From NCBI GenBank assembly GCA_044229975.1, contig JBGARZ010000003.1, forward strand, positions 1-64,000: a stretch of DNA of 64,000 nucleotides, in the 5' to 3' direction. The stretch is from Polyangiales bacterium. Lineage in GTDB: Bacteria; Myxococcota_A; Polyangia; Polyangiales; Ga0077539. The notes beneath the pieces were generated by a model. That model searched no databases and had not been told where the DNA came from. It was given only the letters and a program-made list of their open reading frames with translations. Made by a program: the position numbers and the translations under genes. Within the stretch, counting starts at the first letter, position 1. Every line of letters starts with the position of its first letter. This document shows positions 41,220 through 46,751 of this stretch, piece by piece.

Positions 41220-42146
41220 CTACGCCGCGGGTCGCGCGCGCGCTGCGAGCCAGCGGTACACCGGGATCAACCCCAACGTGATGAGCACCGAGATGAGCTG
41301 CGAGGTGCTCAGCCCTAGCAGTCCGCCGCGGTCGTCGTTGCGCAACACCTCCACGGCGAATCGGAGCACCGAGTAGCTGGCCAGGAAGAACACGAACACC
41401 TGACCGTCGAAGCGCTTGCGCGGCGCCACGAGGTAGTAGCCCGCCGCGGCGATGGCGAGCGACCCTGCCGACTCGTAGAGCTGCGTCGGGTGCACGGGCA
41501 GCGCCGCCATCGCCTCGCTTGCGAGGCGGTGCGCGCGAAACTGCGCCTCGCTCGCGGGCGAGTACCGCGGGAACCACGCAGCCCATGGGTGCTCGCACAC
41601 GACGCCAAAGCAGCAGCCCGCGAGGAAGCAGCCCATGCGCCCCCAGGCGAGACCGAGGGCCACCGCGAAGCCCGCCATGTCGGCAGCCTTCCAGAACGGG
41701 AAGCGCTCGCGCCGCAGGAAGTACACGGCGTACCCGGTCGCCCCGATGAGGCCCCCGTAATACGTGAGCCCGCCCGCCCAGAACGCCGCCCACGCGAAGC
41801 AGTTGGCCTCCTTTGGGTGACAGACACCGCGCGTCGCGTCCCACAAACCGTTGACCGAGCTGTGGAGGCAGTGCTCGCGGGTGATGTGCCACGACACCCG
41901 CGCGGGGTCGGTGCAAAGGTGGACGTAGTCCCAGAAGTAGCCGTCGGCGACGACGTGGAGGAGGCGCGATCCGATGACCCCGGCGACCACCATGGCGAGG
42001 CCGAGGTCGATGATGACCTCGCGGTCGTGACCGAGGCGACCGACCCAGCGGGCGCCGATGAAGGTCGCGAGCGCGAAGCCCGTCGCCAGCATCGCGAAGT
42101 ACGCGGGGAGCTCGGCCCCGAACAACGCGACGAGGACGGGTCTCAT
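41220..42146 (-). CDS. lgt: Prolipoprotein diacylglyceryl transferase
   Basis: GSRLLHV, GGLTYYGG, GRMGCFLAGCCFG, HPTQLYE, RFAVEVLR. Confidence 0.93.
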   Translation of the reverse strand: MRPVLVALFGAELPAYFAMLATGFALATFIGARWVGRLGHDREVIIDLGLAMVVAGVIGSRLLHVVADGYFWDYVHLCTDPARVSWHITREHCLHSSVNGLWDATRGVCHPKEANCFAWAAFWAGGLTYYGGLIGATGYAVYFLRRERFPFWKAADMAGFAVALGLAWGRMGCFLAGCCFGVVCEHPWAAWFPRYSPASEAQFRAHRLASEAMAALPVHPTQLYESAGSLAIAAAGYYLVAPRKRFDGQVFVFFLASYSVLRFAVEVLRNDDRGGLLGLSTSQLISVLITLGLIPVYRWLAARARPAA

Positions 42147-42865
42147 GCGCTCGTCGCCGGCGTCACGGTCGCGGTGCTCGGCCGCGGGGCCTTCTTCGGG
42201 CCGAGGATGTACTCCAGCACCATCAACCCGATGCCGACGGTGATGGCGATGTCCGCGACGTTGAAGGTCGGCCAGTGGTAGCGGGTCTTCCAGTGCGCGT
42301 GGATGAAGTCCACCACGAAGCCCAGACGAACGCGGTCGACGAGGTTGCCCACCGCGCCGCCGAGCACCAGCGGGAGCGCCCACTTCATCAGACGCTGACC
42401 GGGCTCCATCGTGCGGAAGAGGTGCACGATGAAGCCGATGGCGCCGATGGTGACCAGCAGGAAGAACGGCCGCCGCAGCGCCTCGCTCGTGCCGTGCAGG
42501 AAGCCAAACGCGCCGCCGCAGTTCTCCGCGTACTGGAAGTCGAGGAAGTCCTTGATGAGGACGATCTCGCGGTTGGCGATGCGCTGCGGGAGGTAGTGCT
42601 GCATGCCCGCGGGCGGCGTGCAGAGGGGCGGCGGGTGCGAGCTCACGCGCGACAGGTGGCTGAGCGCCCACGCCTTGCTCCAGAGGTCGGCCGCAGCGCT
42701 ACCGATCGCGACCGCCGCGAGGAAGGCCCAGTCGCGGGCCGTCACGGGCTCGACCTCCGGGGTCTTGGGCTTCGACGGCTTCGCCTCGACGACCTCCGCG
42801 GCGGGCTTCGTTTCGGCCTCGACGGCGGCGGTCTCGGCGGCTTCGGTCTGGGTCTCTTCGCTCAT
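42143..42865 (-). CDS. lspA: Lipoprotein signal peptidase II
   Basis: DLWSK, ENCGGAFG, GNLVDR, VVDFI, FNVAD; downstream of ileS. Confidence 0.95.
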   Translation of the reverse strand: MSEETQTEAAETAAVEAETKPAAEVVEAKPSKPKTPEVEPVTARDWAFLAAVAIGSAAADLWSKAWALSHLSRVSSHPPPLCTPPAGMQHYLPQRIANREIVLIKDFLDFQYAENCGGAFGFLHGTSEALRRPFFLLVTIGAIGFIVHLFRTMEPGQRLMKWALPLVLGGAVGNLVDRVRLGFVVDFIHAHWKTRYHWPTFNVADIAITVGIGLMVLEYILGPKKAPRPSTATVTPATSA

Positions 42866-42880
42866 GGTTCCTCTACGGGG

Positions 42881-45800
42881 TCACGCGCCGCGGGCGCGAT
42901 CGAAGACTTCTACGGCGTGACGACAACGGGGGCATAGACCGTCGTCGCCGACGTCGCCACGACGACGCCAGCAACGGTCACACGCAGGCCCGGACGCGAG
43001 GCTCACACGACTCCCCTCGCCCGCGAGCTTGAGCTCGCCGAGGCCGAGGAGCTCGGCCGCCTGCGGAGCGAGCGGACCCAGCTCGGTCTGCTCGGCCTCG
43101 GTCAACGCGAGCGTCACCGTGGCGTCGCGCGCGTGGTCGATGCGCGCATCGGACCCGAACGCCCCTTCGCCCGCGCCGGGCTCGCGCCCCGCCTTCTTGG
43201 CGGCCTGCTTCTCGACGCCCCACGCCTGCACCACAGGCTCCAGCACCGCGAACACCGCCGTGCGTACCGCGCCCAGGCGGCGCATCGCGACGATGAGCGC
43301 GTCGCCGTCGCTGACCGCAGGAACCGTCGGCCACAGCTCCAGGTGGACGCTGTCGCCCTTGCCCGCGAAGGCCGGGATGTGATCCCAGACGTCCTCGGTG
43401 GAGAACGGGAGGATGGGCGCCACGATGGTCGCGATGGAGCGCACGAGGTGCTGCATCGTCGCGAGCGCCGACTGACGACGCGCCGAATCGGGGGCGTCGT
43501 TGTAGAGGCGGTCCTTGGAGGCGTCGAGGTAGAGGGCCGACAGCTCCTGGCAGAAGTCGAGCACCACCGCGAAGGCTTCGCGGAAGGCGTACTCGCGGTA
43601 GGCCCGCTCGCAGCGCGCGAGCACCTCGCCGAGGCGCACCATCGCCCAGCGGTCGAGGGGCTCCAGCGTGACCTCGGTGACGAGCGGGGCGGGCTCCTCG
43701 CGCAGGGCACCCAGCATGAAGCGCATGGTGTTGCGGATGCGCCGATAGGCGTCGATGGCCTGGTTCAGCACGGCGCGCGAGTAGGGCATGTCGTTGGCGT
43801 AGTCGACGAAAGCCGCCCACGCGCGGAAGAGCTCGGCTCCCTGCTCCGCGATGATCTTCTCTGGCGGGATGTACTCGATGTCATCCTGGGCGATGGCGAG
43901 GGCAACGTCGTCGAGGGAGGTCTTCTTCCCGAGGCGCTTGTTGGCCTCGGCGACCTTCTCGGGCGTCGCCCAGGTGCTCTTCATCGCTGCGAGCGCCGAC
44001 GCCAGGGAATCGCCACGCTCCACGCGTGCGACGAGGTCGTCGCGGCGCGCCTCCTGCCGACGGCGGATCGTGTTCTTGGCGTAGGGATTCCCGTTCTCGT
44101 CGCAGACGAAGCCGTGGGTGAGCACGCCGCGGTAGGGCGCCTCGCCGAGCACGGCGCAGCCCACCAGCAGCGACGAGTGAAACCACCCGCGGTGCTGATC
44201 GCTGCCTTCGAGGTACAGGTCCACCTTGGCGCCGAGGTCAGCCTCGGGCTCGCACACCGCGTAGAACGAGCTCCCCGACTCGAACCACACGTCGATGATG
44301 CTCGGGTCGCGAGCGAACTCTTCGCGCGGCCGGAGCGTTCCGTCGGCGCAGCGGATCTGCTCGGGCAGCACCGTCGGATCGTCGCTGTACCAGGCGTCGG
44401 CGCCGCGCTCGGCGAAGACCTTGGCCACGTGGTCGAGCAGCTCGGTGGTGAGCACCACTTCGCCCGTCGCCTTGTGCTGCACCGCGGGGATGGGAACGCC
44501 CCAGATGCGCTGCCGCGAGATGCACCAGTCGGGTCGCGCCTCGATCATGCCGCGGATGCGCTCGCGGCCCCACGACGGGATCCAACCCCGCGCAGTGCCT
44601 TCTCGCGACGCGCGCTCGCCGTCGGCGGCGAGGCGATCGATCTCCGACAGCGCGCGCTCGCGCAAGGTCGCGTTGAAGAAGCCGGGAGCCTTCATCGGCT
44701 CGTCCATCGCGATGAACCACTGCGTGGTGGCGCGGGTGATGAGCGGGTTCTTGCAGCGCCAGCAGATCGGGTACTTGTGCGTGATCGTCTGGCCAGGGGG
44801 CTGGAGCAGCGCGCCGCGCAGATGCAGGTGCAGCTCGATGACCGGGTTGGCTTCGAAGACGAAGCTGCCTTCGAGGCCCATCGTGAGAGAGGCGGCGCCG
44901 AGCTCGCCGGTGTACCGACCGTCGTCTCCGACGGGCGCGTACGCCTCCAGGCCGTTGGCGCTCCCGAGTTTGTAGTCGTCGCGTCCGTGGCCCGGTGCCG
45001 TGTGCACGAGGCCGGTGCCCGCGGTGCTCTCTACGTAGTCGGCGCCGTAGATCGTCGCCCAGCGCTCCTCGAAGGGATGGTGCGCGCGCAGACCGATGAG
45101 GAGCTCACCCTTGAACGCGGGACCGGTGACGACCTCGGCGAGGCCCGCGGCCTTCGCGACGGCCGCGGCGAGCGGGGCTGCGACGAGGAGTCCCTGACCG
45201 TCGGCGCCCTTGAGCACGACGTAGTCGAGCGCCGGGTGCACGGCGATGGCGAGGTTGGCGGGGATGGTCCACGGGGTGGTGGTCCAGATGACGGCGGAGA
45301 CCGTGGTGACGCCGTCGGGGAGCTTCGCCTGGAGCAGCTCGATGCTCGCGGGGTCGAGCGCGAACTTCACATAGATGGACGGCGAGACGTGCTGCTCGGC
45401 GTACTCGACCTCGGCCTCGGCGAGCGCCGTGCGGCAGTGCCAGCACCACTGCACCGGCTTCTTGCCGCGGTAGACGATCTCGTTGGCGACGAAGGCCCGT
45501 AGCGCGCGGATGATCTGCGCCTCGAAGCCCTTGTTCATCGTGAGGTAGGGCTTCTCCCAGGTGCCGAGCACGCCCAGGCGCTTGCGCTCGGTGCGCTGCA
45601 CGTCGACCCACTTGTTCGCCTCGTCGCGGCAGCGGGTGCGCATCTCCGTGGGGGAGACGTTCTCCTTCTTGCGCTTGGCCTCGCGGTCGACGTTGAGCTC
45701 GATGGGGAGGCCGTGGCAGTCCCAGCCGGGGATGAAGCGCGTGCGCTCGCCGAGCAGGTTGCGCGAGCGCGTGACGAAGTCCTTGAGCGCGTTGTTGAGC

Positions 45801-46006
45801 ACGTGCCCGTGGTGCATGTGCCCGTTGGCGTACGGCGGGCCGTCGTGGAAGACGAACTTCCCCGGGACCTCACGCGCCAGCATCCGCTCGTAGAGCTTCG
45901 TGGACTCCCAGCGGGCGAGCCACTGGGGTTCACGCTTGAAGAGGTCGCCCTTCATGGGGAAGGCGGTCTTCGGCAACAGACACGTTTCCTTGTAATCCCT
46001 GGACAC
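42881..46006 (-). CDS. ileS: Isoleucyl-tRNA synthetase (type 1) with aberrant KMSKS loop
   Basis: HDGPPYANG, HHGH, WDCHGLPIE, WTTTPWT, DWCISRQR, EGSDQHRGWF, C-terminal CxxC...CxxC zinc finger; ileS-lspA synteny. GTG 46006 start inferred. Confidence 0.95.
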   Translation of the reverse strand: MSRDYKETCLLPKTAFPMKGDLFKREPQWLARWESTKLYERMLAREVPGKFVFHDGPPYANGHMHHGHVLNNALKDFVTRSRNLLGERTRFIPGWDCHGLPIELNVDREAKRKKENVSPTEMRTRCRDEANKWVDVQRTERKRLGVLGTWEKPYLTMNKGFEAQIIRALRAFVANEIVYRGKKPVQWCWHCRTALAEAEVEYAEQHVSPSIYVKFALDPASIELLQAKLPDGVTTVSAVIWTTTPWTIPANLAIAVHPALDYVVLKGADGQGLLVAAPLAAAVAKAAGLAEVVTGPAFKGELLIGLRAHHPFEERWATIYGADYVESTAGTGLVHTAPGHGRDDYKLGSANGLEAYAPVGDDGRYTGELGAASLTMGLEGSFVFEANPVIELHLHLRGALLQPPGQTITHKYPICWRCKNPLITRATTQWFIAMDEPMKAPGFFNATLRERALSEIDRLAADGERASREGTARGWIPSWGRERIRGMIEARPDWCISRQRIWGVPIPAVQHKATGEVVLTTELLDHVAKVFAERGADAWYSDDPTVLPEQIRCADGTLRPREEFARDPSIIDVWFESGSSFYAVCEPEADLGAKVDLYLEGSDQHRGWFHSSLLVGCAVLGEAPYRGVLTHGFVCDENGNPYAKNTIRRRQEARRDDLVARVERGDSLASALAAMKSTWATPEKVAEANKRLGKKTSLDDVALAIAQDDIEYIPPEKIIAEQGAELFRAWAAFVDYANDMPYSRAVLNQAIDAYRRIRNTMRFMLGALREEPAPLVTEVTLEPLDRWAMVRLGEVLARCERAYREYAFREAFAVVLDFCQELSALYLDASKDRLYNDAPDSARRQSALATMQHLVRSIATIVAPILPFSTEDVWDHIPAFAGKGDSVHLELWPTVPAVSDGDALIVAMRRLGAVRTAVFAVLEPVVQAWGVEKQAAKKAGREPGAGEGAFGSDARIDHARDATVTLALTEAEQTELGPLAPQAAELLGLGELKLAGEGSRVSLASGPACDRCWRRRGDVGDDGLCPRCRHAVEVFDRARGA

Positions 46007-46100: not shown

Positions 46101-46751
46101 ATGCAACAGCAGCCCGGCCCCTACGCACCGAACCGCTACGGCTACGCACCGCAGCCCGCGCCGATGCCGCCGAGCAAGGGGCCGTCGAAGCTCGCGATCG
46201 GTGCGGGCAGCGTCATCCTCGGCGGGCTCATGGTCACGGCGGCGGTGCTGCACTCGCGCGAGGTCGAGGAGTTCTCGCCCATCGTGTCGGTGTGCGGCGG
46301 AGGGGCGCCGCGGGGGACGCGGGCGCTCGCGGCGGGGCAGCCGCATCGACTCGTCGGCGCGCGGATGACCGGCTCGGCGTGGGTGCCAGATTTCTTCCGG
46401 GTGCCCGGCGAGATGCGGGCGACCGAGGCGGGCGGCGCGGATGTGGTCGCGTGCTTCGGGGACGAGACCAACACGACGCTAGAGACGTGCACGTATCAGG
46501 TGTGGTTCCGCGGGCGGACGTCGGAGGCCAACTATCCGCGGACGCAGGCCCAGCTCCCGGTGCGACTCGTTGCGGCGAGCACGGGGCAGGTCATCTCCCA
46601 GGGCGTGATCCAGGGCGCGGTGCCGCCCGCGTGCGACTCGCAGCGGAGCACGGCGGGGTCGAGCCCCAGCGCATTTCATGTGCAGGGCGCAGCAGTTAGC
46701 GCGACGGACGTGCAGTCTTGGGTGCAGTCGCCCGCGGCGCAGCTCCCATGA
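46101..46751 (+). CDS. Hypothetical membrane-anchored protein with 4 Cys
   Basis: Pro/Tyr/Gln-rich N-terminus, single TM, extracytoplasmic Cys-containing domain. Confidence 0.7.
   Translation: MQQQPGPYAPNRYGYAPQPAPMPPSKGPSKLAIGAGSVILGGLMVTAAVLHSREVEEFSPIVSVCGGGAPRGTRALAAGQPHRLVGARMTGSAWVPDFFRVPGEMRATEAGGADVVACFGDETNTTLETCTYQVWFRGRTSEANYPRTQAQLPVRLVAASTGQVISQGVIQGAVPPACDSQRSTAGSSPSAFHVQGAAVSATDVQSWVQSPAAQLP

Follow-up and report, generated by a model that had tools for sequence, protein, structure and literature searches.

The window analysed here, which comprises 64,000 nucleotides (positions 1 to 64,000 of contig JBGARZ010000003.1 in the Polyangiales bacterium assembly GCA_044229975.1), encodes an isoleucyl-tRNA synthetase (IleRS) in which the KMSKS signature of the catalytic loop reads PYAKN and is followed by a segment 63 residues longer than the canonical one. 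Our analysis indicates that the PYSKS-type motif and its insert are real and conserved and amount to a lineage-level variant of a familiar enzyme, for which decay of the motif and domains placed beside the loop both have precedents, and, as judged from aligned sequences, that PYAKN arose by drift at two residues of the clade motif PYSKS and not by a jump from KMSKS. We are highly confident that the enzyme is active, and we tentatively propose, by analogy with other synthetases, that the inserted helical module may buttress the KMSKS loop and lend basic residues to the tRNA.

The ileS gene occupies positions 42881..46006 of the minus strand, from a GTG start at 46006-46004 to a stop codon at 42883-42881, and specifies 1041 amino acids (residues are numbered as in P0001, residue 1 being the Ser after the initiator). 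The protein scores 729 bits against TIGR00392 (cut-off 621), and its closest solved structures are type-1 enzymes (IleRS1), the best by both sequence and fold being that of P. megaterium; type-2 structures match it with far lower scores, and it reaches 232 bits against the MupA/MupB model, far under the cut-off of 1900. A preliminary description of this DNA had pointed to PYAKN at 44086-44072 with the second Lys of the motif kept, to a loop insertion of about 60 residues, and to a HIGH motif reading HHGH together with intact editing and zinc motifs, and we found each of these in the minus-strand reading frame. HHGH (residues 64-67; 45803..45814, minus strand) fits the canonical HXGH and is HYGH in most relatives, the CP1 editing motifs WTTTPWT and GTGLVH...D are present at residues 240 and 329, and the C-terminal zinc-binding domain, recognised by its motifs CDRC...CPRC (1008, 1024; 42923..42982, minus strand), keeps the wobble-contact Trp1012. 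As a separate observation, residue 71, after the start of the HXGH helix, is Asn in 17 of 17 long-insert proteins and Lys in 105 of the 106 others.

PYAKN (residues 640-644; 44072..44086, minus strand) directly follows THGFVCDENGN and is PYSKS in relatives. The literal KMSKS is absent from the protein and only the second Lys of the motif is kept, as the catalytic Lys643 encoded at 44077-44075 of the minus strand. The post-motif segment (residues 645-710; 43874..44071, minus strand) places 66 residues between PYAKN and YIPPEKII, and separates the motif from the conserved Pro by 70 residues; in E. coli IleRS the latter distance is 7. Measured from HGF to G-x-[DE]-x-x-R-x-W, the window IleRS has 100 residues, and of 80 background IleRS1 loci, mostly from Proteobacteria and with KMSKS in 76 cases, 77 have 37; the gain is therefore 63 residues. 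The segment has two parts, about 10 residues common to much of the class and about 53 (roughly 44050-43890) that are limited to three genera.

Such a sequence could be explained by a misassembly, or by loss of function in a gene whose role is taken by a canonical ileS at another locus, and the preliminary description had named both as outcomes that would refute its reading. A search with tblastn and PF00133 found, among synthetases of this type, one each for isoleucine, leucine (LeuRS) and methionine (MetRS) and two for valine (ValRS), and no second ileS in the genome, whose completeness of 93% means that a second copy could be missing; among the matches listed for the long-insert genomes there was no type-2 IleRS. 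Against this explanation, the same in-frame insert is present in 11 related genomes, and P0002, which was assembled separately on another contig and has an overall identity of 96%, agrees exactly in PYAKN and in the insert. Both insert junctions are also crossed by relatives' contigs from two public runs, X1 record 3 over 43766-44305 without gaps and X3 record 17 over 43600-44371, and taken together these independent assemblies show that the insert is neither a product of chance nor a misassembly. None of the public runs reached half of the sampled sequence words, and the runs with small shares carry no information on habitat or expression. Purifying selection was seen across all domains of ileS, and the GC content of the insert agrees with that of the rest of the gene (GC at third codon positions 0.89, against 0.84-0.96 in other regions). 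In a twelfth relative ileS is interrupted by the contig end, and in another, G002 (contig C3), a frameshift directly after the insert is probably a sequencing error. We give the artefact explanation next to no credence; the single copy and the purifying selection suggest that the window IleRS charges isoleucine.

We drew 150 genomes of the class, of which 73 matched the type-1 query at E 1e-25; 69 sequences were fetched and 68 read. Not one of the 68 has KMSKS: PYSKS was read in 29, VYSKS in 10, ILSKS in nine, KYSKS in six and AYSKS in four, plus six rarer forms. The first Lys of the motif is missing in 61 and the second is kept in all 68. With a non-literal motif in every one of these relatives, PYAKN marks a variant and does not exclude the protein from the type-1 IleRS. 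The source labels found among relatives are Polyangia, Polyangiales, Haliangiales, Kofleriaceae and Myxococcales. Other classes have KYSKS, KLSKS, KLAKS or KMSKS, all without the insert, and across 123 aligned sequences the catalytic Lys is the sole invariant position of the motif. The remaining 77 genomes of the class gave no type-1 match, and those sampled separately carry a type-2 IleRS. Within the host family, three genera (g5, g4 and g2; L023-L027) likewise have a type-2 IleRS as best match in place of type 1.

A segment of 8-11 residues (about 10) follows the motif in 43 of the 68 class proteins and is missing in 25. The profile of the long insert gave a single match each in 12 of 31 host-family genomes, belonging to three of 10 genera, with an insert length of 66 in 11 genomes and 65 in one. 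All 11 long-insert genomes besides the window's own read PYSKS; among members of the 90% cluster, PYAKN is limited to P0002 and the window's own record, and one member has PYSKK. The preliminary description had taken the motif as peculiar to this gene, which did not survive the survey, loss of the first Lys being class-wide and occurring both with and without the helix. It had also allowed that the variant might be a clade trait, and here the alignment with relatives bears it out, revealing a graded trait of the class with the long insert in three genera.

In a tree built with FastTree from 134 sequences and 451 columns, with the loop excluded and with FastTree supports only, the long-insert proteins form one clade (0.996), nested in an order-level clade that has the short segment (1.0) and that itself lies inside the class clade (0.938). 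PYAKN appears as a terminal change. A sister clade carries a separate insert of 12 residues ahead of the motif, which there reads ALSKS, AISKS, AMHKT, AMHKR, ALAKR or AMSKS; given this variety across the class and the sister clade, each change in PYAKN is paralleled in relatives, the Lys alone remaining constant. In the sister IleRS1 (L014-L018; genera g9, g10 and g3) the pre-motif insert lies at the position of the LeuRS leucine-specific domain. The order suggested by the tree would be a change of Met to Tyr and loss of the first Lys across the class, then gain of the segment of about 10 residues after S-K in many lineages, then the addition of about 53 residues in three host-family genera, and then the drift from PYSKS to PYAKN in this species.

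The preliminary description had thought the insert helical, and AlphaFold2 predicted four helices (643-662, 667-673, 681-692 and 697-708) both in the full protein, with a mean predicted local distance difference test score (pLDDT) of 93.6 and blocks of 90-97, and for the insert alone (mean pLDDT 87.5); the insert is conserved in the long-insert genomes. The model retains the strand-hairpin that precedes the motif and places Lys643 at the start of the first helix, of 20 residues. In 10 genes the insert has an identity of 0.716 and a ratio of nonsynonymous to synonymous changes (dN/dS) of 0.40, as compared with 0.715 and 0.40 for the CP1 editing domain and a dN/dS of 0.28-0.30 for the catalytic regions, values obtained by a simple counting method and at a high GC content that lowers dS. 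The positions fixed in 14 long-form proteins include R649, Q650, R653, K/R660, G664, S676, W678, K683 and K/R693.

Comparison of the insert with known folds and families gave few leads as to its origin. Foldseek returned no significant match (E 0.001 or better), which neither shows nor excludes a new fold, and the best VIA-align Z, 6.0, is of a size that common arrangements of helices also give. For 12 inserts, scans against Pfam and PHROGs found no meaningful family and no Pfam helix-turn-helix (HTH) match, and Atlas look-ups returned only scores under 0.9. When its profile was compared with 1.84 billion representatives there were five matches, three of them to IleRS, one to an HTH-repeat protein and one to a further repeat protein. 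The two matches outside IleRS, that to the HTH-repeat protein having an E of 1.3e-6 summed over 10 stretches, could be taken to mean that the insert is a protein docking site, or a borrowed HTH-like nucleic-acid binder, with a job outside charging. However, the HHalign probability is only 23%, HTH families are absent from the top-listed fold matches, and what is shared amounts to a helix-Gly-x-Ser/Thr-Leu-helix corner of a generic kind; we regard a role of this kind as very improbable.

Helices 2-3 of the insert match the post-KMSKS insert of ValRS weakly (HHalign score 20.2, probability 33%); the match scores above 200 column shuffles, 72 decoy profiles and the reversed profile, and with E. 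coli ValRS alone the probability is 1%. An origin by internal duplication was also considered. In the closest relatives the short segment resembles residues 656-668 more than do 1987 of 2000 column shuffles; the broad short-form profile, however, fails (165 of 2000 shuffles reach it), and this post hoc test of a generic pattern yields a lead only. An acyl carrier protein was rejected, because the Ser of the GDSL that is present is Ala, Thr or another residue in most relatives, and acyl carrier protein fold rows have Z under 5. The likeness of the insert to the ValRS insert, the HTH repeat and the short segment may reflect one common helix-Gly-helix corner.

How the altered loop might work is suggested by studies of LeuRS. 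As described in the passages of PMC5059758 considered here, the second Lys of the E. coli LeuRS motif contacts the adenylate phosphate and the first contacts C75 of the tRNA, and the Met reaches adenine with its main chain. Given that the second Lys is kept and that the Met replaced by Tyr makes its contact through the main chain, the motif can still activate Ile: on the LeuRS and IleRS literature, Lys643 would still bind the phosphate of ATP or the adenylate, and at the adenine the backbone of Tyr would stand in for that of Met. Part of PMC3643597 describes the leucine-specific domain of LeuRS as positioning the KMSKS loop and guiding the tRNA end. Since a variable module beside the LeuRS loop positions that loop, the insert of the window IleRS may by analogy buttress its own, in which case it would travel with the loop as the leucine-specific domain does. 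R649, R653, K683, K/R660 and K/R693 would then supply tRNA contacts in place of the one that the first Lys of LeuRS makes with the tRNA 3' end; R649, R653 and K683 are invariant basic residues and 660 and 693 are fixed in charge, which is consistent with such a role.

Several observations weigh against this proposal. PYSKS without the added helix was read in 9 genomes from four families, and the helix is thus not required to compensate for the lost Lys. The lineage of the window IleRS has further inserts (367-377 and 455-468, which are smaller, and 926-961), and with other inserts in the same protein the lineage may simply tolerate insertions and deletions. The LeuRS domain precedes the motif, whereas the window insert follows it. 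The net charge of the insert is about +1 (13 K/R, 12 D/E), unlike a typical RNA-binding patch, and a dN/dS below 1 may reflect the need to fold alone.

These points lead to the main rival, neutral accretion, according to which the enzyme is active, the site is an insertion-tolerant part of the surface, and the module is kept only to fold without disturbing the loop. It is consistent with the coming and going of the 10-residue segment among clades nested together, with the sister clade, where a different 12-residue insert precedes motifs such as AMHKR, ALAKR and AISKS, and with the several other inserts within the protein. On the other hand, the length of the insert is near-fixed, its surface-type residues R649, Q650, R653, S676, W678 and K683 are invariant across three genera, and its constraint equals that of the editing domain. 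We consider neutral accretion somewhat unlikely, though a serious alternative, and retain the buttressing module as our tentative reading.

It was also conceivable, as the preliminary description had suggested, that the remodelled loop confers resistance by weakening the binding of mupirocin or another antibiotic that mimics the adenylate. In the parts of PMC10485003 considered here mupirocin is anchored through its carboxylate at the backbone NH of the second Lys; loop closure is tied to resistance in type-2 enzymes (parts of PMC10485003 and PMC7191050); the self-resistance LeuRS AgnB2 reads KQSKS (PMC5059758, in part); and a rigid helix at Lys643 could alter the shape of the loop. However, the published contacts are retained. 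Those given for type-1 enzymes in the same parts of PMC10485003 are Pro56, Asn70, Phe586 and the backbone NH of Lys597, to which the S. aureus IleRS adds His585/Phe587 (PMC7191050, in part), and their counterparts in the window IleRS are P56, N70, H630, F632 and K643. The passages of PMC10485003 considered here locate hyper-resistance in a change of the HIGH motif to G/AXHH in type-2 IleRS and give no such change in type 1; the window IleRS is type 1, not MupA/MupB, and reads HHGH. With HXGH and the published contacts kept, resistance is without sequence support. The motif change is moreover class-wide, and the gene is a vertically inherited single copy beside lspA and lgt, with no biosynthetic cluster among the neighbouring open reading frames read. 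We judge resistance an improbable explanation.

The position of ileS agrees with its being the housekeeping copy, as had been supposed from its neighbours and as the detection of a sole IleRS in the genome supports. It is followed by lspA, encoding lipoprotein signal peptidase (42143..42865, minus strand; TIGR00077 over cut-off), and by a gene for an lgt-like prolipoprotein diacylglyceryl transferase (41220..42146, minus strand; TIGR00544 E 9e-27, under its cut-off). In 12 long-insert genomes ileS is followed by lspA, and then in 11, all those whose locus extends far enough, by lgt. Divergent from ileS is an open reading frame of 216 amino acids at 46101-46751 on the plus strand, which has no NCBIfam match and no meaningful Pfam match.

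The tRNA complement of the host raised a different possibility. The genome encodes a well-formed tRNA-Ile with the gene-encoded anticodon UAU (contig C20:281741-281814, L243), and no TilS over the cut-off was found in it (55.8 against 93.6 bits). TilS was over the cut-off in 145 of 151 genomes of a phylum sample and 59 of 61 of a class sample, and in 0 of 31 host-family genomes. The UAU tRNA pattern was found in two of the 151 phylum-sample genomes, both in the host family, in 23 of the 31 host-family genomes and in 11 of the 12 with the long insert; with a looser pattern it was found in none of five TilS-less genomes from three other genera. No UAU tRNA was detected in those g9 and g10 genomes that were searched, which also lack TilS. 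On these sequence searches, the family looks like a case of family-wide, lysidine-free decoding of AUA, apparently undescribed. Several tRNA arrays lie on contigs C32, C19 and C16. Neither tRNA-Ile(GAU) nor the 16S motif was found in the assembly, a gap probably due to unassembled rRNA operons, and no GlnRS was found in the assembly.

In a family that lacks TilS and reads AUA with tRNA-Ile(UAU), the loop insert might have co-adapted with the tRNA, aiding the charging of a poor substrate. This idea draws on the lack of TilS over the cut-off throughout the family and on the frequency of the UAU tRNA there, as well as on the passages of PMC3575796 considered here, in which charging of the UAU tRNA by E. 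coli IleRS is inefficient and M. mobile IleRS reads UAU by means of a Trp-to-Arg change; because the window IleRS keeps this Trp, another route would be needed. The zinc-domain Trp-to-Arg change was found in five IleRS of sister genera. However, the motif change and the short helix also occur in genomes that keep TilS, the long insert is present in just three of the 10 genera of the TilS-less family, and the catalytic loop is distant from the anticodon. Because the loop insert is confined to some of the family's genera and the motif changed before TilS was lost, the link to the tRNA finding is weak, and we think such co-adaptation improbable too.

An insert in the C-terminal junction domain (residues about 926-961, about 27 extra; 43121..43228, minus strand) follows the family better than the loop insert does. 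It is present in all host-family type-1 IleRS whose C-terminus was read (17 long-form rows and six other host-family loci) and absent from 106 short-form proteins and from three loci of other families in the order. It coincides with the loss of TilS, and may matter more than the loop insert for UAU recognition. The broadest account would be that the class rebuilt the catalytic loop around one Lys, and that the TilS-less family then added helical modules at both ends of IleRS, the one in the loop possibly from ValRS, to charge unmodified tRNA-Ile(UAU) without the Trp-to-Arg change; we offer this as a speculation that is distinctly unlikely to hold as a whole.

A PYSKS-type IleRS with the long insert is apparently undescribed. 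No description of the motif type or of the long loop insert was found in the literature covered, supplementary alignments and most subscription papers being outside its scope; the terms KMSK and Myxococc are absent from the main text of PMC13752280, and the portions of PMC11685878 and PMC11580382 considered here make no mention of a PYSKS-type IleRS or of the insert. KMSKS, which contributes to the mupirocin pocket, is generally presented as an almost universal mark of class I synthetases. A single essential enzyme now offers a natural series in graded steps, from KMSKS through KYSKS, PYSKS, PYSKS with 10 and PYSKS with 63 additional residues to PYAKN, with one Lys constant throughout. The series provides natural controls for the role of each motif position and of loop flexibility in activation, transfer and inhibitor binding; the insert is a small helical domain that has apparently not been described before, and the myxobacterial family points to seemingly lysidine-free AUA decoding. 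The mechanism of class I enzymes is not overturned, degenerate motifs with the second Lys and loop-adjacent domains being known in others.

Among known systems the window IleRS is closest to the type-1 enzymes of P. megaterium (8C9E), S. aureus (1FFY/1QU2) and H. pylori (8WNF), with which it shares the domain order, HXGH, GSDQ/THGF, the CP1 motifs and the zinc domain at the C-terminus (the Foldseek TM score against 8C9E, normalised by target length, is 0.89), and from which it differs by PYAKN, the 63 extra residues after the motif, the C-terminal insert and the two smaller inserts. The post-KMSKS insert of ValRS in E. coli and Myxococcota, long known as a phylogenetic marker, is also helical and just downstream of the motif, but it sits about 10 residues later, after GN-x-x-DP, the KMSK is intact, and the match is too weak for homology. 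The host genome has two ValRS genes (C38:55523-58576 and C38:600571-603246), one standard bacterial with a helical insert after KMSKV, the other matching alt_ValS/PRK13208 over cut-off.

The M. mobile tRNA-Ile(UAU) system without TilS (PMC3575796, in part) resembles the host family, which likewise has no detectable TilS and mostly has the UAU tRNA; the Trp-to-Arg change of the zinc domain is shared by the sister genera, while the window IleRS keeps the Trp. The hyper-resistant type-2 IleRS with G/AXHH (PMC10485003, in part) also have a naturally altered class I signature, although there the motif is HIGH, the enzyme is of the other type and resistance was measured, whereas HXGH is canonical in the window IleRS. 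The leucine-specific domain of LeuRS (PMC3643597, in part) is, like the window insert, a lineage-variable folded module beside the KMSKS loop, and it positions that loop; it is mostly beta and precedes the motif, the window insert is predicted all-helical and follows it, and homology between them was not found. Finally, E. coli GlnRS (VMSKR) and the LeuRS AgnB2 (KQSKS) are active class I enzymes with an altered motif in which the second Lys is kept. They belong to other families and have no comparable inserted domain, and a likeness in spacing between GlnRS and the window loop was set aside, since their prolines probably do not correspond; nevertheless GlnRS, like the window IleRS, is without the first Lys, and it is functional.

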